Of a stretch of DNA of 64,000 nt, positions 6,145 to 57,842 are shown one piece after another. The notes under the pieces were generated by a model. The model saw only the letters and a list, made by a program, of their open reading frames with translations, was not told the DNA's origin and ran no database searches. The position numbers and the translations under genes are program-made. Numbering within the stretch: position 1 is the stretch's first letter; every line of letters starts with the position of its first letter. Source of the stretch: Christensenellaceae bacterium (GTDB taxonomy: Bacteria; Bacillota; Clostridia; Christensenellales; Borkfalkiaceae); NCBI GenBank assembly GCA_045589615.1, contig JAZNPL010000031.1, positions 38,251-102,250 on the forward strand, read 5' to 3'.

Positions 6145-6202
6145 AAAAAAATCTCCTAAAGTAATTTTAGAGAGACCGATAAAATAACCCTAACGGGCGA
6201 TA

Positions 6203-6295
6203 ATAGCGGACGCGCAAAAAATACCGCAGACACTTGTCTTTCGTTTGCAAACGACATCCCATTTTGCAACACTTGACGCATTTTTGCTACTCTAT
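6203..6295 (-). promoter_or_regulatory. THF (tetrahydrofolate) riboswitch
   Basis: The minus strand reads ATAGAGTAGCAAAAATGCGTCAAGTGTTGCAAAATGGGATGTCGTTTGCAAACGAAAGACAAGTGTCTGCGGTATTTTTTGCGCGTCCGCTAT. This matches the conserved AGAGUAG..GCGU.AAGUGU..AUGGGAUGUCG..ACGAA..GCGG..CGUCCGCU blocks of THF-I. Confidence 0.85.
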
Positions 6296-6366
6296 GTTTT
6301 TATTTTAACATTAAATGGCTATCAAGTCAACTTTATGGTATATTTTTTTGTGCGTTTTGCCATAAT

Positions 6367-10708: not shown

Positions 10709-10774
10709 AAAAATTTTTAAAAAAATCGTTGACAAATATTAGAAAAAAAAGTAAACTAAAAACGAACTCAATAT

Positions 10775-10930
10775 TATCCGGTAGGTAAGGCTACCATAGG
10801 GATACGGGCTGCTGCCGCAAACTAGTGGAGACACTACGAGATGGTTTCAACAGACTACGTCGAAAACAAGGCGTAATCCAATGCAGTTTCACTGCCCTAC
10901 GGTGCTAAAGCCAGCATGGTAACAGTACTT
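10775..10930 (+). promoter_or_regulatory. M-box (ykoK) Mg2+ riboswitch
   Basis: GGTAGGTAAGGCTACC..GGGATACGGGCTGCTGCCGCAAA..GGAGACACTACGAGATGGTTTCAACAGACTACGTCGA..AATGCAG..CTACGGTGCTAAAGCC aligns block by block with the B. subtilis mgtE leader. Confidence 0.9.
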
Positions 10931-21861: not shown

Positions 21862-23064
21862 TTACATAGAGTAAACTGCTTTGTCGTTATATACCGTCAA
21901 ATAATTTCGTCCGAAAACCTTGTAGTTTTCAAAGGGCGTTGCTTTGCCCTTAGACAAAAATTCATTTGGATTTATTAAATATTCTTCCTCTAAATTCCAC
22001 ACCGAATAGCCGTTGTATTTAATATTAAATCGGTTTCGTGGATTGTTTGCAAGTAGGTCAATTAACTTTTCTAAACTTATTACCCCTTCCTTTACTAAAT
22101 AGGTATAACAAATAGGAAACGCCGTTTCAATGCCAACTATTCCAAACGCACTGCCAGATAATCCTTTAGATTTTTCTTCCATAGAGTGTGGTGCGTGGTC
22201 GGTTGCAATCATATCAATCGTGCCATCAATTACCCCTAAAATTAAGGCTTCTTTATCGCTTTTGTCCCTTAAGGGTGGATTCATCTTAAACTTGCCGTCT
22301 TCTTTCAAATTGGAGTCGTCTAAAACTAAATAGTGTGGGCCCGTTTCGCAAGTAACGTTTATTCCACTTTTCTTAGCGTCCCTAATAACTTCCACGCTTT
22401 CTTTCGTAGAAATATGACAAACGTGGTAAGCACAACCCGTTTCTTCAACGAGTTTTAAGTCTCTTTCAATCTGCTTGTATTCGCTTGCAGAACAAATGCC
22501 TTTATGCCCGTGTTCTTTAGCGTACTTTCCGTCGTGAATATATCCACCAAAAAGTAAAGAATTGTCTTCGCAATGTGCCGTAATGATTTTGCCTAATGAT
22601 TTAGCCTTAAGCATTGCTTCTTTCATAAGTTCTTTGCTTTGAACGCCCCTACCGTCGTCCGAAAAAGAAATCGATAGGTCTTTTAGGTTGTCCATATCGG
22701 AAAGCCTTTCGCCTTTCTGCCCAACAGTTATAGAAGCGTACGGATAAACGGCAATGCAAGCGTCTTTCTTGATAATATCAAGTTGAACGCCAATATTTTC
22801 CACCGAATCGGGAACGGGGTTAAGGTTAGGCATAGAACAAACTGCCGTATAGCCACCCCTAGCACAAGCGTTAGTGCCCGTTTTTATGGTTTCTTTATAA
22901 AAAAACCCCGGCTCTCTCAAATGAACGTGAACGTCACAGAAACCGGGAAAAATAACGAAATTATCAGTAGAAGAAGCAGAAGCGGGAACTTTTAAAGACA
23001 AATCGGCAAGCGATTTACCTAAATAATTTTTACCCGTTACTATCGTTGTTCTTTTGAAACCCAT
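21862..23064 (-). CDS. pyrC: dihydroorotase
   Basis: DVHVHLREPG metal motif, TDHAPH, 400 aa, GGAGAA RBS. Confidence 0.9.
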   Translation of the reverse strand: MGFKRTTIVTGKNYLGKSLADLSLKVPASASSTDNFVIFPGFCDVHVHLREPGFFYKETIKTGTNACARGGYTAVCSMPNLNPVPDSVENIGVQLDIIKKDACIAVYPYASITVGQKGERLSDMDNLKDLSISFSDDGRGVQSKELMKEAMLKAKSLGKIITAHCEDNSLLFGGYIHDGKYAKEHGHKGICSASEYKQIERDLKLVEETGCAYHVCHISTKESVEVIRDAKKSGINVTCETGPHYLVLDDSNLKEDGKFKMNPPLRDKSDKEALILGVIDGTIDMIATDHAPHSMEEKSKGLSGSAFGIVGIETAFPICYTYLVKEGVISLEKLIDLLANNPRNRFNIKYNGYSVWNLEEEYLINPNEFLSKGKATPFENYKVFGRNYLTVYNDKAVYSM

Positions 23065-36826: not shown

Positions 36827-36942
36827 AAAAAAACAAAAAAGGGCGCAAAATTTCCGCTTAAGAAATTTTCGCCCAGACGCACGGCTTAATATTAGTTTTT
36901 ATTGCACTATGGTACACCATACTTACTCGTCAGTAATAAAAA
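36827..36942 (-). promoter_or_regulatory. ZTP (pfl-motif) riboswitch with overlapping terminator
   Basis: The minus-strand RNA reads UUUUUAUU-ACUGACGAG-..AUGGUGUACCAU-AGUGC-AAUAAAAA, then a linker, then GCCGUGCGUCUGGGCG. GACG...CGUC covaries with the consensus GGCG...CGCC pseudoknot. The terminator GGGCGAAAAUUUC..GGAAAUUUUGCGCCC plus a U-run shares the GGGCG of the aptamer. Confidence 0.85.
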
Positions 36943-36966
36943 CTCCCTTTGTTTTTTAACGGTATA

Positions 36967-38295: not shown

Positions 38296-39171
38296 ATGTT
38301 AGATTTTATAGTCAACCCATCTGCCGGTGGAAAAGACGGTAAGAAAATTAAAAAAGCACTCCCGAAAATCGAAAAATATCTTTATGAAAAGGGTGTCGAT
38401 TACCTAATTCATATGACCAAAATGCCCAACCAAGCAACCGAAATGACTGCTTCGTTAATAAAAAACGGTGCAACCGACATAATCGTTGTCGGTGGGGACG
38501 GTACGCTTCACGAAGTCATAAACGGCTTTTCCGATTTCGATAGGGTTAATATGGGTATCATCCCTTGTGGCACGGGTAACGACTTCGCTTCTGCTATCGG
38601 CTTGCCATTAGACCCTGTTGAAGCATTAAAATTAATCGTTGATGGAACGCCTAAATATACCGACTTTATGCAAATGCCAACCGTTAGGGGGCTAAACGTT
38701 ATCGGTATGGGTATCGACGTTGACGTTTTGAAACGCTACGAAGCGTTGAAAAAGAAAACTAAGTTTAAATACACCACTTGCCTAGTAAAAACCTTGTTTG
38801 ATTTTGAATATTCTGATTTCGACTGCGTTATGAACGGCAACAAAACGCATTATCGTTCGTTTATCGCTTGCATTGCAAACGGAAATCGCTACGGTGGTGG
38901 TATTCCCATTTGCCCCGTCGCTGACCCAACTGACGGTAGTTTAGACTTCCTTGCAGTTAAGGAAATTAAACGCATTAAAATCATTGGTGCGTTCTTAAAA
39001 CTAAAGAAAGGCAAGATTTTAGAATTGCCACAATCGATACACGAAAAAATGACCGAAATCAAAATCGAACTACCAGTAGAACACTACACCGTCAACGTGG
39101 ACGGCGAACTTTACGAAGACATACCGTTTGAAGTAAAAGTAGTGTCCAACACCTTAAAAGTTTATAGATAA
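38296..39171 (+). CDS. diacylglycerol/lipid kinase family (YegS/DagK-like)
   Basis: NPSAGG, VVGGDGTLHEV and PCGTGNDFA motifs. Confidence 0.85.
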   Translation: MLDFIVNPSAGGKDGKKIKKALPKIEKYLYEKGVDYLIHMTKMPNQATEMTASLIKNGATDIIVVGGDGTLHEVINGFSDFDRVNMGIIPCGTGNDFASAIGLPLDPVEALKLIVDGTPKYTDFMQMPTVRGLNVIGMGIDVDVLKRYEALKKKTKFKYTTCLVKTLFDFEYSDFDCVMNGNKTHYRSFIACIANGNRYGGGIPICPVADPTDGSLDFLAVKEIKRIKIIGAFLKLKKGKILELPQSIHEKMTEIKIELPVEHYTVNVDGELYEDIPFEVKVVSNTLKVYR

Positions 39172-39189
39172 AAGGTAAAATTGATTATC

Positions 39190-39219
39190 AAACTCGCTTT
39201 TTTGTAAAGCGAGTTTTTG
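39190..39219 (+). terminator. terminator after the lipid kinase gene
   Basis: AAACTCGCTTT-loop-AAAGCGAGTTT followed by a T-run. Confidence 0.7.
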
Positions 39220-39233
39220 TTTTGCCTACAAAA

Positions 39234-39501
39234 AACTGCTTGATAAAATTTTTTATATGTGATATACTACTTACGTCACACGAACTAAATATGAAAGCAA
39301 GACTAAACTAGGGAATATTTTATTGTTTTAATGGAAATACTCTCGTTGAAATAATTTGTTAAAAATGCAAATTCCAACAACGGGAGTGCTTAGTCATTGC
39401 TTTTGTTCGTGTGACAACGACGGGATTTGCGTTTTATGTGCGGCAACTCTCGTTGTCGCATTTTTTTATTAAAGGAGAAACAGTATGAAGAAAAAAGTTA
39501 C
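39234..39501 (+). ncRNA. structured RNA module 1: promoter, ~190-nt folded RNA, terminator, 8-codon stub
   Basis: TTGATA (39240), 17 nt, TATACT (39263). P1 GTCACACGAAC/GTTCGTGTGAC (39275-85/39405-15). P2 39294-306/39390-403. P3 39339-48/39378-87. Terminator TGCGGCAAC-TCTC-GTTGTCGCA plus T7 (39439-67). Then AGGAG and ATGAAGAAAAAAGTTACAACTGCTTGA. Confidence 0.6.
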
Positions 39502-39769
39502 AACTGCTTGATAAAATTTTTTATATGTGATATACTACTTATGCGAAACAAACTAAATAGCAAAAATGAGCGACATTTTTTAATTTTAGGGGATTTTTAT
39601 ACCTTTTTTTGTGCATTCTATCTTTACGGATTTGATAAAACTGCAAATTCCACCGGATAGAATCGCAAGTTCGCTCTTGTGCTATTAACGGTTTGTTTCG
39701 CAACAACGGAGTTTGCGTTTTTGTGCGGCAACTCTCGTTGTCGCATTTTTTTATTAAAGGAGAAACAAC
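39502..39769 (+). ncRNA. structured RNA module 2 (leader of the 77-aa ORF)
   Basis: Its promoter block is identical to module 1 (39502-41). P1 TGCGAAACAAAC/GTTTGTTTCGCA (39542-53/39691-702). P3 ATTCTATC/GATAGAAT (39615-22/39656-63). The terminator (39724-52) and RBS are identical to those of module 1. Confidence 0.6.
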
Positions 39770-40003
39770 ATGAGGAAAAAAGTTACAAACGAAGACGTTG
39801 GTGTACTTTTCAAAAAAGTTGCCGACCAAGTAAAAAGCGAAATGGACTATGATTTTAGGGTTGCACAAAGTCAAATGTATCTTGCCGAAAACGATTTGAT
39901 TGAAACCTTAGACGAAAATCAAAAGAAATTATATCGTGATTATTTAGATAAAAGAGACGTGTTTTATGCAATAGCAAAAGAACTTTACGTAAGAAAATTT
40001 TAA
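39770..40003 (+). CDS. small helical hypothetical protein (77 aa)
   Basis: AGGAG RBS. MRKKVTNEDV...ETLDENQKKLYRDYLDKRDVFYAIAKELYVRKF. It resembles small Clostridial proteins of unknown function. No family is assigned with confidence. Confidence 0.55.
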   Translation: MRKKVTNEDVGVLFKKVADQVKSEMDYDFRVAQSQMYLAENDLIETLDENQKKLYRDYLDKRDVFYAIAKELYVRKF

Positions 40004-40010
40004 AACTTAA

Positions 40011-40039
40011 AAGAGCCAAGTTTGGCTCTTTTATTTTTG
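40011..40039 (+). terminator. terminator after the 77-aa ORF
   Basis: AAGAGCCAA-GT-TTGGCTCTT followed by TTATTTTT. Confidence 0.7.
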
Positions 40040-40066
40040 TTAAATTATAATTATTTAATCCACAAC

Positions 40067-40146
40067 TTGCCGTTAGGCAAATTTCACTGCGAAGCAATTT
40101 CACTTGCATAAAGCAAATTTCACAAATCCATAAGGATTTATTTCAC
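40067..40146 (+). repeat. array of four contiguous [variable hairpin + ATTTCAC] units
   Basis: TTGCC-GTTA-GGCAA ATTTCAC / TGC-GAA-GCA ATTTCAC / TTGC-ATAAA-GCAA ATTTCAC / AAATCC-ATAA-GGATTT ATTTCAC. There are no gaps between units. Confidence 0.8.
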
Positions 40147-40436
40147 TTTTTTGGAATAGCAACTATCTGACCGTAAAATAGGTATGGAATTTCGCCGTTT
40201 AGACTTTCAAACTCACTGTTTGATAAGCAAAATTTGTTTAGGACTTGTTCTAAGGTTTCAAACGGCTTTACTTGATAGCAATAGGTTGCGTTATCGCAGA
40301 TGAGAAGCAAGTCGCCCGCTTGAATTTCGCAATTTAGACGGTTTAGTTTTATTAGATATAACGGAGATACCTTAAAGGCGTTGGCAACGCTTAATATGGT
40401 ATCTTTTTTTTCTACTCTATAAATAATCTTTTTCAC
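40143..40436 (-). CDS. small protein with two LysM-like repeats
   Basis: YRVEKKDTILSVANAFKVSPLYLIKLN...AGDLLLI and YQVKPFETLEQVLNKF...GQIVAIP. GTG start with no clear RBS, so the start is uncertain. Confidence 0.5.
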   Translation of the reverse strand: MKKIIYRVEKKDTILSVANAFKVSPLYLIKLNRLNCEIQAGDLLLICDNATYCYQVKPFETLEQVLNKFCLSNSEFESLNGEIPYLFYGQIVAIPKK

Positions 40437-55086: not shown

Positions 55087-55173
55087 TGGTGCCGCTGGCC
55101 GGACTTGAACCGGCACGGTATCGCTACCACTGGATTTTGAGTCCAGCGCGTCTGCCAATTTCACCACAGCGGC
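55087..55173 (-). tRNA. tRNA-Leu (anticodon CAA), class II with long variable arm, CCA encoded
   Basis: The reverse complement is GCCGCTGTGGTGAAATTGGCAGACGCGCTGGACTCAAAATCCAGTGGTAGCGATACCGTGCCGGTTCAAGTCCGGCCAGCGGCACCA. It forms a cloverleaf with anticodon loop CUCAAAA. Confidence 0.9.
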
Positions 55174-55289: not shown

Positions 55290-57842
55290 ATGGAAAAGTT
55301 AATTCTTATTGACGGAAACAGTTTAATAAACCGTGCGTTTTACGCTATGCCGTTGCTTTCTACTAAAGACGGCGTTTATACCAATGCCGTTTACGGCTTT
55401 TTAAATATGTTCTTTAAAATGCTTTCCGAAGAAAAGCCCGACTACGTTGGGGTTGCTTTCGATTTAAAAGCACCTACCTTTAGGCACAAAATGTACGGAG
55501 AATATAAAGGCACTAGAAAACCTATGCCCTTTGAACTTCGTCCACAAATTCCCTTACTAAAAGAACTTCTTGCCCTTATGGGTGTAAAAACCTTTGAACT
55601 TGAGGGGTATGAAGCAGACGACATTATCGGTACGATTGCCAAAAACACTGATATCCCTACCCTTATTTACACGGGCGACAAGGACTCTTTTCAACTTGTT
55701 GACGAACAAACGGAAGTGCATTTTACTCGCCGTGGTATTACCGACGTTGAAATTTATAACAACGCTAACTTTACCGAAAAAATGGGTATAAACCCCTTAC
55801 AAATAATCGACCTTAAAGGGCTTATGGGCGATTCTTCAGACAATATTCCCGGCGTTCCCGGTGTTGGCGAAAAGACTGCCCTTACCCTAATTCAAACGTA
55901 CGGCTCGGTAGAAAACCTTTATGAACACACCGAAGAACTAAAGGGCAAACTAAAAGAGAAAATCGAAAACGGCAAGGAGTTTGCATTTCTATCTAAAACG
56001 CTTGCCACCATTAACGTAAACTCGCCTATTCCTTTTAGGACCGAAGAAATGAGAGTTAGTTTACCCTTAAAAAGCCAAGTAAAAGAACGCTTTATCAACC
56101 TTGAATTTAAATCTTTATACTCTAAGACCGAACTTTTTGACGAAAAAACCGAATCTATAGCAACGCCAGAAGAAAAAGCGACGCTTATAATTAAAGATTC
56201 TCTTAAAGGTGCAAGTAGTTTAGTTAAAAAAGGCAGTGCGATTTGCATATTCAACGACACCTTTAATATATCGGACGGCAAGGAAGAATATTCTTTTAAG
56301 ATTAACAAGACCTTGCTTGACGACGGATTTAATTTATCGGATATTTTAAGTGAATTTAAATCTATTTTCACGGGCGAAACGCCAATACTTGTTTTTGACA
56401 AAAAGGAATTAAAGCATTTGCTTTTTTCTACCCTAAATATAACCTTAACCTGTCCTTGCGACGACCTATCGCTAGTAAAATATCTAGCCGATTACTCTGG
56501 TGGGGCTGTAAAACTTTCAGACGTTATAACTGAGTACGGAAAAGACGAAAAACTTCCCGCAACGGCAATCTATCAAGTTTACCAATCTCTTTACCAAAAA
56601 CTTTGCGTTGAAGAAATGGAAGACCTATACAAAAAGGTAGAACTTCCACTATCCGACGTATTGTTTAGTATGGAGCAATCGGGATTTAAGATTGACGCAA
56701 ACGCCCTTAACCTTGCGGGCAAGAAGTACGCTGAAACGTTAGCCGAATTAGAGCGTCAAATACGAGAACTTGCAAACGATTTAACCTTAAACGTAAACTC
56801 TCCAAAGCAACTTGGCGAACTGCTTTTTGAAAAGTTAAAAGTTGGCAAGGGTAAAAAGACCAAGACGGGATATTCTACTAGTGCTGACGAACTAGAAAAA
56901 CTAGAGTCGTCGCACCCTATAATTCCCTTAATTTTAAAACACAGAAAACTTCAAAAACTAACTTCAACCTACGTTGAGGGCTTTAAGCCGTTAATCGAAA
57001 AGGAAACGGGGCTTATACACACTTCGTTCAATCAAACGGTAACTTCAACGGGTAGGCTTTCTAGCAAAGAACCCAACCTACAAAACATACCGGTTAGAGA
57101 CGAGGAAGGCAAAGAACTTAGAAAATTCTTCGTGCCGAGAGATGAAGAACATATCTTGATTGGTGCGGATTATTCTCAAATAGAACTAAGGCTTCTTGCC
57201 GCCTTTTCGGGTTGCCCTGCGTTAGTAAAAGCCTTTAAGGACGGAAAGGATATTCACTCTGAAACTGCATCGAAAGTGTTCAAGACGCCTATCGAAAAGG
57301 TAACAAAGCAAATGCGAAGTGCTTCAAAAGCAGTAAACTTTGGTATCATTTACGGCATAAGCGAATACGGATTAGCCAAAAACCTTAAAATTTCGCCAGC
57401 AGAGGCAAGAGAATATATAAATTCGTACTTTTTAGAATACCCCGAAGTAAAACAATATATGACTGACAACGTAGAATTTGCTAAAAAGACGGGTTACGCC
57501 ATAACTTATTTAAAGCGTAGGCGTTATATCCGTGAAATAAACGCATCCAACTTTGCATTGCGTTCGTTTGGGGAAAGGGCTGCAATGAATATGCCCTTGC
57601 AAGGCAGTAGTGCGGACATTATAAAACTAGCAATGCTTGGGGTTTATAACCGTTTAAAAGATGAAAACCTACAATCAAAACTGATTTTGCAAGTTCATGA
57701 CGAATTAATAATAGACGCACTTATAAGTGAAAAAGAACGAGTAGAAAAAATACTAAAGGAAGAAATGGAAAACGCCGTATCGCTATCAGTTCCCTTAACT
57801 GTTGAAACGGGCTCTGGAAAAACTTGGTACGACGCTAAATAG
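55290..57842 (+). CDS. polA: DNA polymerase I
   Basis: 850 aa. 5'-nuclease domain (LILIDGNSLINRAFYA), and family A polymerase motifs DYSQIELR and QVHDEL. Confidence 0.95.
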   Translation: MEKLILIDGNSLINRAFYAMPLLSTKDGVYTNAVYGFLNMFFKMLSEEKPDYVGVAFDLKAPTFRHKMYGEYKGTRKPMPFELRPQIPLLKELLALMGVKTFELEGYEADDIIGTIAKNTDIPTLIYTGDKDSFQLVDEQTEVHFTRRGITDVEIYNNANFTEKMGINPLQIIDLKGLMGDSSDNIPGVPGVGEKTALTLIQTYGSVENLYEHTEELKGKLKEKIENGKEFAFLSKTLATINVNSPIPFRTEEMRVSLPLKSQVKERFINLEFKSLYSKTELFDEKTESIATPEEKATLIIKDSLKGASSLVKKGSAICIFNDTFNISDGKEEYSFKINKTLLDDGFNLSDILSEFKSIFTGETPILVFDKKELKHLLFSTLNITLTCPCDDLSLVKYLADYSGGAVKLSDVITEYGKDEKLPATAIYQVYQSLYQKLCVEEMEDLYKKVELPLSDVLFSMEQSGFKIDANALNLAGKKYAETLAELERQIRELANDLTLNVNSPKQLGELLFEKLKVGKGKKTKTGYSTSADELEKLESSHPIIPLILKHRKLQKLTSTYVEGFKPLIEKETGLIHTSFNQTVTSTGRLSSKEPNLQNIPVRDEEGKELRKFFVPRDEEHILIGADYSQIELRLLAAFSGCPALVKAFKDGKDIHSETASKVFKTPIEKVTKQMRSASKAVNFGIIYGISEYGLAKNLKISPAEAREYINSYFLEYPEVKQYMTDNVEFAKKTGYAITYLKRRRYIREINASNFALRSFGERAAMNMPLQGSSADIIKLAMLGVYNRLKDENLQSKLILQVHDELIIDALISEKERVEKILKEEMENAVSLSVPLTVETGSGKTWYDAK

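Follow-up and report, generated by a model that had tools for sequence, protein, structure and literature searches.

A 64,000-nt stretch of Christensenellaceae bacterium DNA (contig JAZNPL010000031.1; the whole stretch is called the window below) contains two promoter-to-terminator modules placed head to tail, unit 1 at 39234-39501 and unit 2 at 39502-39786, the second of which leads into an open reading frame (ORF) for a 77-amino-acid (aa) protein. On balance, we favor the view that each unit is the promoter and leader of a new family of cis-acting transcription attenuators, that the effector is probably a macromolecule, and that unit 1 is a paralogue without an ORF of its own. In the reading of these leaders as cis-acting attenuators, taken on its own, our confidence is high. 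The case is a computational one, built from the promoter, the rod-like fold of the leader, the terminator, a covarying and balanced antiterminator, a complementarity between the apical element of the rod and the linker behind it, the adjacent genes, the distribution of the family and the swapping of rods between strains. The original prediction, made from the sequence of the window, described tandem structured RNA modules with identical flanks and covarying cores. Beyond this, the locus is one member of a large family of leaders that lie upstream of very diverse genes.

Two leader units and the family they belong to

Each unit opens with the same 40-nt block, AACTGCTTGATAAAATTTTTTATATGTGATATACTACTTA, at 39234 and 39502 (copies 100% identical), in which a consensus scan found the promoter TTGATA-17-TATACT with a TG extension and 10 of 12 consensus matches. 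Each closes with a block that holds a terminator-like hairpin, a T-run, AGGAG and then ATGA(A/G)GAAAAAAGTTACAA; these 3' blocks are 91-94% identical (91% where the flanks are quoted together, with 100% for the 5' side). A terminator scan of the region gave four terminator-like sites where 0.8 were expected. Reading the sequence and aligning the units recovered the sequence features listed in the original prediction, each in its place. The length of 268 nt proposed for both units holds for unit 1 and fails for unit 2: the 5' blocks are 268 nt apart and the 3' blocks 285 nt apart, so that unit 2 is 17 nt longer and measures 285 nt by equal landmarks. The content behind the units is as first described, with a stub ORF, MKKKVTTA*, after unit 1 and the 77-aa ORF after unit 2. 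In unit 2 a ribosome-binding site (RBS) and the ORF follow 17 nt beyond the T-run, and in unit 1 the stub is all that follows. The stub extends into the unit 2 promoter, and the junction of the units lies between ...GTTACAA and CTGCTTGATA. Between the flanks, the rods of the two units are 59.6% identical in a global alignment, which is the background between unrelated family members. Tandem Repeats Finder did not report the array at units 1 and 2 because the cores are too diverged.

Both units fold into nested stems P1 and P2, a side hairpin (P2a), P3 and an apical hairpin, with a free energy of -68.5 kcal/mol for unit 1 (z = -8.3) and -71.8 kcal/mol for unit 2 (z = -7.6), and 0 of 200 shuffled sequences were as stable. 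Together with the promoter and terminator scans, these folds bear out the proposal of discrete structured RNA modules. Helices P1, P2 and P3, proposed as shared, are indeed found in both units; what the proposal lacked is an additional helix in unit 2, between P1 and the helix that it called P2. All 72 family members, each folded singly, have the same architecture. P1 spans 12-15 bp, usually GCCAAACnAAyU/ArUUnGUUUGGC, and is followed by a short conserved AAUA and P2; then come the P2a side hairpin (GGGrUA..UAyCC), a U-run, P3 and the apical hairpin GAAUUUG-AUAAAA(A)UG-CAAAUUC. The rod is ~50 nt long per strand (standard deviation 5.3) while the position of the P2a branch wanders, P1 plus P2 taking up 17-47 nt per strand and P3 9-45 nt in a branch-point parse that is noisy.

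Helices that are kept despite sequence change had been noticed within the window, and the same holds across the family. P1 is more conserved in sequence than P2 and P3, which are essentially random between members (12-nt P3 arms are 30% identical). The arms of one member pair with each other at -47.1 kcal/mol over the whole rod, against -23.2 kcal/mol for arms taken across members, and at -28.1 +/- 4.9 against -14.5 +/- 3.9 kcal/mol in the variable part. Compensatory pairs are many in P1 and in the terminator of the 72 homologues; one P1 pair, for instance, is AU in 25 sequences, UA in 25, CG in 18 and GC in 2. The rods contain 296 G.U pairs and 8 A.C single mismatches, an excess which indicates selection on the + strand RNA and not on a DNA palindrome.

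The promoter, which is of the sigma-70 type, is positioned with equal regularity. Its -10 hexamer stops exactly 6 nt upstream of the G that opens P1 in 48 of 67 members; the extended TG is present in 50 of 72 and a -35 hexamer in 51. From this fixed distance between -10 and P1, the RNA is predicted to start at P1. A leaderless mini-ORF, AUG CCA AAC UAA, was rejected, as the predicted start is the G of P1 and unit 1 has no AUG.

The original prediction found no match to a known RNA class, and Rfam agrees. A scan of the whole window against Rfam 15 at gathering threshold gave no match in 39234-39790. At E <= 10, the region 39100-40100 gave noise only on the element (best match 19.6 bits, to a plant miRNA model), a scan of the canonical member L024 at the same cut-off likewise gave no family, and a gathering-threshold scan of loci L001-L017 placed no family on their leaders. 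The PyrR model reached 24 bits, below its cut-off of 54, on the terminator of the upstream gene and not on the element. Elsewhere in the window the gathering scan reported M-box, THF, ZTP and Gut-1 elements and one tRNA, and these matches indicate that the scan was working. Thus, the units belong to none of the Rfam 15 families, including T-box, c-di-GMP-I/II, PyrR site, ykkC, glycine, SAM, purine, ZTP, THF, M-box, preQ1 and 6S. In the searchable literature no named motif matches the leader; unnamed candidates in large screens such as PMC8040213 may include it. Most likely, these RNAs constitute a new family of structured leader RNAs that is absent from Rfam 15.

A covariance model of the family, R1, was built from 72 distinct sequences with both window units in the seed alignment. 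It matches unit 2 with 159.6 bits (E = 2.4e-30) and unit 1 with 123.9 bits (E = 3.7e-23), both over model positions 1-210; these matches are partly by construction, the units being seed members, and the agreement with the other 70 sequences is visible in the alignment. Units 1 and 2 are the sole R1 matches in the window. Two candidates for a third copy were rejected: a stretch at 21891-22036 with an R1 score of 16 bits has none of the leader motifs, and a linker-like 14-mer at 55976 lies in apparent coding sequence. Both units show the features of the family, namely a promoter ~6 nt before P1, an apical element and, just 3' of the rod, a linker, with an RBS and ORF behind unit 2. The invariant linker of the family is GGAGUUUGCGUUUUU; the unit 1 variant, GGGAUUUGCGUUUU, retains pairing.

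Homologues of the 77-aa protein form 12 clusters only, all from metagenome or metagenome-assembled genome (MAG) assemblies. Their contigs represent at least three neighborhoods (DegV/TrmO, DAGK/LysM and Glug), the context differs at every locus, and the leader stands upstream of the gene at every such locus where the contig extends far enough. The leader is not confined to this gene. A pattern scan for the apical motif in one genome per species gave at least 120 stretches; R1 confirmed 84 of the 120 listed, which makes at least 84 loci in species-representative genomes, and 14 of 16 stretches in IMG/VR. The confirmed genome loci all come from MAGs of gut or rumen Clostridia, with no cultured isolate among the matches listed. 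Taxa among these matches are Oscillospiraceae, Acutalibacteraceae, Christensenellaceae, Faecousia, Ruminococcus, Subdoligranulum, Lachnospiraceae and Candidatus Scatosoma, and four MAGs have at least two leader copies each. The search for homologous loci in Clostridia that had been suggested has thus been productive, and the proposed helices are maintained at those loci. A phage-specific element was considered and rejected: the leader is found on 14 IMG/VR contigs, yet it is far commoner in genomes. Four stretches picked up by the apical pattern are false positives (L041, L106, L116 and L129, from MAG CAKQPE01, Hadza gut). They belong to another repeat, ...TTTTTGAAAAAAATCGAGTAAAACTTTTGATAAAATGCAATTTCATTGCATTTT, of which that one MAG has several copies, and R1 does not match them. 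One family member, L134 (6052-6341, -), is 290 nt long instead of ~210 nt, with an apparent insertion in the 3' half of the rod.

What links these RNAs to genes is the spacing. Our candidate set holds 54 unique ORFs that have an RBS and start no more than 60 nt past the T-run, most of them 17-35 nt past it, and this tight spacing marks the RNA as a cis-acting leader. A lipobox is encoded by about 21 of the coupled ORFs, and a different signal peptide or a membrane segment by about 13 others. Pfam searches with 49 of them found LRR_5 (BspA-type) in 9 and LRR_8 in 6, along with one or two cases each of subtilase, C-type lectin, dockerin, Flg_new, VWA, Ltp lipoprotein, trypsin-like protease, MazE/AbrB and zinc-ribbon. 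No metabolic theme was found among the Pfam-annotated downstream genes. For this reason, and because the branch point wanders, we consider a macromolecular effector more probable than a metabolite aptamer. On three IMG/VR contigs (L140, L145 and L150) the leader precedes a lipoprotein gene and at L139 the gene of a zinc-ribbon membrane protein; at all four the next ORF begins MPKRSEKRD..., and the L140 copy matches a terminase small subunit (phrog_1889, E = 1.7e-55). Prophage accessory genes are laid out in this way. The 77-aa protein itself is predicted to form a two-helix hairpin (model predicted local distance difference test score, pLDDT, 87); searches of Pfam, NCBIfam and PHROG gave no family and a comparison with PDB folds no match.

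Antiterminator, apical element and a proposed mechanism

On the 3' side of P1 lies an invariant GAC(U/A)AUCGGAGUUUGCGUUUUUUGUGCG and then the terminator, usually with a CUUCGG loop. That an antiterminator could form here in place of the terminator was part of the original prediction, and the family alignment strongly favors it. The nine pairs of CUAUCGGAG with CUUCGGUAG are formed in 94% of the alignment cells, against 31-64% when one strand is slid, both strands have changed in 24 cells, and none of 500 shuffles scores as high as the real alignment. Covariation therefore maintains an alternative pairing that excludes the terminator, as in an attenuator. In constrained folding of the 3' domains of the family, the terminator has -16.3 and the antiterminator -18.0 kcal/mol; with a difference of -1.7 +/- 1.7 kcal/mol, the switch between them is balanced. 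In unit 2 the minimum free energy (MFE) structure of the 3' domain is the antiterminator (-17.0 kcal/mol vs -14.3 kcal/mol for the terminator state), and in unit 1 the terminator is retained in the MFE structure. A pseudoknot of the P2a loop (GAUAGU) with the linker (ACUAUC) was rejected, there being no covariation by eye in the alignment; the U/A variation of the linker reflects a varying terminator partner and not the P2a loop. As a separate observation, the 5' strand of P3 in unit 1, ACTCTCGTTG (39339-39348), recurs unchanged as the loop and 3' arm in both terminators (39446-39455 and 39731-39740; repeat family D3). The 3' strand of that P3, CAACGGGAGT, could therefore pair with either terminator as a second antiterminator, which appears to be specific to this lineage.

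The two most conserved blocks of the family are complementary to each other, the apical 5'-AAAAAUGCAAAUUCC-3' to the linker 5'-GGAGUUUGCGUUUUU-3'; in unit 1 the apical loop and its 3' strand are the part that complements the linker. Over the 15 positions of this putative helix, 98.8% of the cells in the 72-sequence alignment are paired, compared with 27-60% once the strands are slid. Pairing survives in all of the common one-sided variants (U.G to U-A in 8 members, G-C to G.U in 5, U-A to U.G in 9), and in L075 the linker has changed along with both strands of the apical element, with one C-G double change. The duplex has -17.6 kcal/mol vs -4.0 kcal/mol for the apical hairpin, a value that 0 of 2000 shuffled linkers reach. 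In unit 1 the apical hairpin has -3.3 kcal/mol and the duplex with its own linker -17.9; the unit 2 duplex has -17.7, and the apex of unit 1 with the linker of unit 2 gives -20.9 kcal/mol. No other target-like site was found in the window: the remaining matches to the linker and apical motifs do not exceed chance and fall within coding sequence. As in pT181, one RNA segment of these leaders is thus complementary to the very strand of the leader that would otherwise go into the antiterminator. Because the linker holds the GGAG half of the antiterminator, its capture would act as an anti-antiterminator and favor termination.

We propose the following sequence of events. Transcription would start at the first base of P1, and the nascent RNA would fold into a very stable rod that presents the invariant apical hairpin, with the linker just 3' of the rod. 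There are then two possibilities: (a) the linker takes the terminator's loop and 3' arm as its partner, so that the antiterminator forms and polymerase reads through to the RBS and ORF, or (b) the apical loop and its 3' strand capture the linker over ~15 bp, the terminator is free to form and a leader of ~195-210 nt is released. Capture may take place between molecules or between the units of one read-through transcript, since an intact rod would put the apex ~50 bp from its own linker. Terminated sibling leaders would then supply the apical element, possibly aided by an RNA chaperone or another protein. Alternatively, a protein that binds the apical hairpin may set the outcome. In either case unit 2 would control the 77-aa gene. 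That attenuation takes place, and what kind of effector drives it, we infer from the architecture of the leaders and their genes. Our confidence is moderate to low in the step in which the apical element would pair with the linker and block the antiterminator, and lower still in its intermolecular form.

Several observations weigh against the scheme. The putative apical-linker helix rests on complementarity and on the type of substitution, not on covariation: column shuffles pair as well as the real alignment (98.7% vs 98.8%), with one double-sided change, and with two partners that hardly vary, covariation is uninformative here. The complementarity could have historical causes, or it could reflect two similar sites for one protein (GAAUUUG and GGAGUUUG). 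Pairing of apex and linker within one molecule looks sterically implausible as long as the rod is intact. A fold-back at the three-way junction, which would bring the apex to the base of P1 in an intramolecular pseudoknot, predicts a positive correlation between the lengths of P1 plus P2 and of P3; the observed correlation is -0.47, so this geometry is unsupported and we rejected it. Capture between molecules, for its part, would need high local RNA concentrations. The conserved J1/2 (AAUA) and P2a are left without explanation and could form a ligand pocket. Finally, the transcription start sites, 3' ends and read-through of the leaders are all predictions.

The same elements could also be assembled into an attenuation network made of RNA only, in which leaders recognize one another. 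Terminated leaders, including those of the ORF-less unit 1, would capture the linkers of their siblings, block the antiterminator and force termination, and capture would take the form of an antiparallel dimer of two rods with two kissing duplexes of ~15 bp. Such a geometry would explain why the rod keeps to ~50 nt per strand despite its wandering branch. If true, it would mean a genome-wide, dosage-dependent cross-repression of surface-protein, lipoprotein and prophage accessory genes in gut Clostridia. We consider a network of this kind unlikely.

Table 1. Features of the two leader units and of the 77-aa gene, in window coordinates
Feature	Coordinates	Strand	Details and basis
Unit 1 promoter	39240..39268	+	TTGATA 39240-39245, 17-nt spacer with TG extension, TATACT 39263-39268; consensus scan
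Unit 1 leader RNA, ~194 nt, no own ORF	39275..39468	+	5' end inferred from promoter, 3' end from T-run
Unit 1 rod	39275..39415	+	P1 39275-39285/39405-39415; P2 39293-39306/39390-39404
Unit 1 rod, inner part	P2a side hairpin 39308-39334; P3 39338-39348/39378-39388	+	Predicted fold
Unit 1 apical element, conserved hairpin AATTTG-TTAAAAATG-CAAATTCC	39352..39375	+	Nearly invariant in family alignment
Unit 1 linker with antiterminator 5' strand ACAACGA..GGGA	39416..39437	+	Segment GGGATTTGCGTTTT (39422-39435) complements apical element
Unit 1 intrinsic terminator	39438..39468	+	Stem-loop 39438-39461, then T-run; terminator scan and family compensatory pairs
Duplicated RBS and stub ORF	39473..39511	+	AGGAG 39473-39477, MKKKVTTA* 39485-39511; direct-repeat family D1
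Unit 2 promoter	39508..39536	+	TTGATA-17-TATACT with TG extension; consensus scan
Unit 2 leader RNA, ~211 nt, 5' leader of 77-aa gene	39543..39753	+	Predicted fold and R1 match
Unit 2 rod	39542..39702	+	P1 39542-39554/39690-39702; extension helix 39556-39562/39680-39686; P2 39568-39573/39671-39676
Unit 2 rod, inner part	P2a 39588-39605; P3 39608-39623/39655-39669	+	Predicted fold
Unit 2 apical element GGATTTG-ATAAAACTG-CAAATTCC	39628..39651	+	
Unit 2 linker with antiterminator 5' strand ACAACGGAG	39703..39722	+	Segment GGAGTTTGCGTTTTT (39708-39722) complements apical element
Unit 2 antiterminator			5' strand ACAACGGAG, pairing partner CTCTCGTTGT
Unit 2 intrinsic terminator	39723..39753	+	Stem-loop 39723-39746, then T-run; terminator scan and family compensatory pairs
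RBS and 77-aa ORF	39757..40003	+	AAGGAG 39757-39762, ORF 39770-40003; ORF calls
Terminator-like hairpin closing 77-aa gene	40008..40033	+	Terminator scan
Apical segment AAAACUGCAAAUUCC			Counterpart of linker GGAGUUUGCGUUUUU

Some further features lie in or around the units. A TTG-initiated ORF at 39427-39660 (+), which begins at the end of unit 1 and reaches the unit 2 core across terminator, promoter and rod, is almost certainly spurious; its length of 77 aa, like that of the real gene, is a coincidence. A Gut-1 RNA (RF01706, 62.5 bits, gathering threshold 50) lies on the opposite strand at 40076-40148 (-), 70 nt past the 77-aa ORF, where it abuts the stop of a gene with a LysM domain (40143-40436, -). 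Its single-stranded GUGAAAU repeats are complementary at 6 of 7 positions to AUUCCAC, 3' of the apical stem of the leader. No Gut-1 was found at other loci of the 77-aa gene, and we therefore treated a link between Gut-1 and the leader as a coincidence of this locus. The other gathering-threshold matches in the window are an M-box at 10770-10926 (+), a THF element at 6202-6296 (-), a ZMP/ZTP element at 36864-36947 (-) and a tRNA at 55090-55173 (-). The ZTP element lies just upstream, on the - strand, of purE-/purC-like genes (AIRC and SAICAR_synt domains).

Alternative explanations and the origin of the tandem

If the leader were a metabolite or second-messenger riboswitch, the junction (J1/2 AAUA, P2a and the U-run) would be its ligand pocket and the apical-linker complementarity would be incidental or structural. 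A structured 5' leader domain followed by a balanced terminator/antiterminator platform is what such a switch would look like, there are conserved unpaired nucleotides after P1 and in P2a, and adhesin-like surface-protein targets resemble those under c-di-GMP riboswitch control in Clostridia. A riboswitch is nevertheless not the best-fitting reading of the conservation pattern: most of the invariant positions are in the apical hairpin and the linker and not in the junction core, the widely varying position of P2a argues against a fixed three-dimensional pocket, and long, well-paired, hypervariable stems are atypical of aptamers. With no metabolic clue in the downstream genes and no Rfam riboswitch match, we hold this explanation to be possible, though doubtful. 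The units might also be stand-alone tandem sibling small RNAs (sRNAs) like LhrC or PrrF, which would act in trans through the exposed apical loop and for which adjacency to an ORF would be secondary. In favor of this, both units carry a promoter and a terminator of their own, unit 1 lacks a following ORF, and the long stable stem under the apical loop is like that of antisense RNAs; 11 of the 84 hits (some at contig ends) also lack an RBS-bearing ORF within 300 nt, while in others the first ORF is more than 60 nt off. Most members, however, have a co-oriented RBS and start 17-35 nt past the T-run, which is unexpected for free-standing sRNA genes, and a pure sRNA would have no use for a conserved antiterminator in competition with the terminator. 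As the window also offers no further target-like site, free-standing sRNAs are decidedly improbable.

Two explanations at the level of DNA have to be weighed against the attenuator. In an invertible DNA switch like those of Clostridioides difficile cwpV and flgB, the arms of P1 would serve a recombinase as inverted repeats and flipping would alter termination. One locus makes this worth considering. In L138 (3653-3857, -) and L154 (850-1060, +), which are identical in sequence, the rod interior is reverse-complemented between intact P1 arms, with linker and terminator intact. The apical element there reads GGAATTTGCATTTTTAACAAATTC, so that it has the sense of the linker and the pairing is lost; P2a and the U-run appear as an A-run plus hairpin on the 3' side, and R1 matches both strands with 107 and 84 bits. 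The greater conservation of P1 relative to P2 and P3, and the position of the element between a promoter and surface-protein genes, would also suit an inversion system. Yet a pattern for the flipped configuration found nothing beyond L138/L154 in IMG/VR and 241 million metagenome records, and all other R1-positive instances (the 84 genome loci, other viral contigs and the loci of the 77-aa gene) are in forward orientation. An inverton would show the same locus in both orientations at appreciable frequency, and with one flipped locus only we rejected it; we take the inversion at L138 to be a rare accident that befell a long inverted repeat and not the work of a regular phase switch. The G.U excess points to selection on the hairpin of the + strand RNA, and no recombinase gene is consistently adjacent, the contexts differing at every locus, all of which makes a regular DNA switch very unlikely. 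Still further from the evidence is a palindromic repeat, whether selfish or neutral, or a simple tandem duplication of recent date, whose regulatory role would be limited to supplying a promoter and a terminator. The identical flanks and the short ACAA microhomology at the junction fit duplication or recombination, and quasi-palindrome correction at the DNA level could keep stems paired without selection on RNA. A recent duplication, however, would not leave cores as diverged as those of unrelated members between identical flanks, which is also why the original prediction doubted it, rightly as it turns out. A mobile repeat would share rod sequence between members, and none is shared, as the P3 arms illustrate. 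Strand-specific G.U pairs, a covarying antiterminator and fixed promoter and RBS spacing, moreover, indicate a selected RNA function. We give a mere repeat or duplication very little credence.

How, then, did two units with unrelated rods come to lie between identical flanks? Strain comparisons support the cassette-like or homogenized architecture suggested at the outset. Loci L001 and L003 have DegV genes 97.3% identical, ORFs 98.3% identical and promoter blocks 100% identical, and rods of 65.7% identity; at L012 and L014 the ORFs are 100% and the rods 60.3% identical. The sequence of L014 opens with the 3' end of another unit, immediately before its promoter. Different types of rod can be told apart: that of unit 1 goes weakly with L010 and L100 (66%), that of unit 2 with L002 and L003 (73%), and a third type comprises L001, L014, L115 and L051 (73-81%), against a background of 57-64%. 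The arrangement of the window is kept in four related contigs, of which L005, L006 and L008 have both units; in L007, unit 2 is preceded by the 3' end of a further unit that is cut by the contig start. The simplest account of the tandem is an old array of paralogous leader units before the 77-aa gene, in which recombination between identical flanks would drive the loss, gain and homogenization of units. Unit 1, with its ORF stub and the ACAA microhomology at the junction, would be one such paralogous unit, with a core of another type than unit 2, and it would add a second promoter and an extra, ORF-less leader RNA. At some of these loci there is also a ~200-nt insertion just past a 78-aa ORF, with terminal inverted repeats TGTCATACTGACCGAGCG...CGCTCAGTATGACA and internal TGCAAAATGCAGA repeats. 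It is present in L010 (1054-1260) and at the same position in L012, L014 and L015, is absent from L011, and looks like a small mobile element.

Relation to known systems and significance

Among the closest parallels are the riboswitch and leader attenuators of Firmicutes, such as c-di-GMP-I/II before clostridial surface proteins, which likewise have a structured leader close to the promoter, a terminator just before the RBS and an exclusive antiterminator, and which occur in many copies upstream of adhesin-like or surface-protein genes. Unlike these, the leader described here has no Rfam match and no known ligand, its conservation is concentrated in the apical hairpin and the linker, and its stems are hypervariable. 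Three-layer attenuators (the PyrR-controlled pyr leaders and T-box leaders) share with it a conserved antiterminator balanced against a terminator and an upstream element able to sequester one antiterminator strand, and T-box stem I is also a long stem with a conserved distal end. The leader, in contrast, has no T-box match, specifier loop or T-box sequence, its genes are not those of pyrimidine or amino-acid metabolism, and the partner that would act as anti-antiterminator sits at the tip of a ~50 bp rod.

In the plasmids pT181, pIP501 and pAMbeta1, the loop of an antisense RNA kisses a segment of the leader, the preemptor is blocked and a terminator forms upstream of the ORF. The logic proposed here for loop and leader is the same, and in both cases the regulatory loop is displayed on a long stable stem. 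The complementary element differs in being of the same sense, within sibling leaders, and not a countertranscript; its interaction is proposed from sequence, and it is accessory genes of chromosome and prophage that are targeted, in place of replication genes. The cwpV-type leader switches of C. difficile are inverted by RecV, and their orientation decides termination. As in those switches, inverted repeats bound a segment that lies between a promoter and a surface-protein ORF, and one flipped copy was found; in contrast to them, the leader is flipped at one locus only, and its inverted repeats belong to an RNA rod on which selection acts at the RNA level. Head-to-tail units with their own terminators are also known from tandem sibling sRNAs (LhrC1-4, PrrF1/2) and from tandem riboswitches; the sRNAs, like our units, have their own promoters as well, and key motifs are conserved while stems differ. 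What sets the present tandem apart is that unit 1 bears a stub of the downstream ORF, that flanks are identical around cores diverged like those of unrelated members, and that the number and type of units differ between near-identical strains.

If confirmed, this large family would be a new class of structured leaders with a regulatory role, found in uncultured Clostridia of the gut and rumen, whose gene regulation is almost unstudied. The genes behind these leaders mediate contact with the host, with phage and with neighboring cells: BspA-type leucine-rich repeat (LRR) proteins, lipoproteins, proteases, and lipoprotein genes before terminase small-subunit genes. The mechanism lends itself to testing, since the covarying antiterminator and the 15-nt complementarity of the two invariant blocks are defined elements that can be mutated. 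The swapping of rods at identical genes between strains, and the tandem arrays, show that regulatory RNA cassettes turn over. The R1 model could, in addition, be used to annotate promoters, transcription starts and attenuators in thousands of MAGs.

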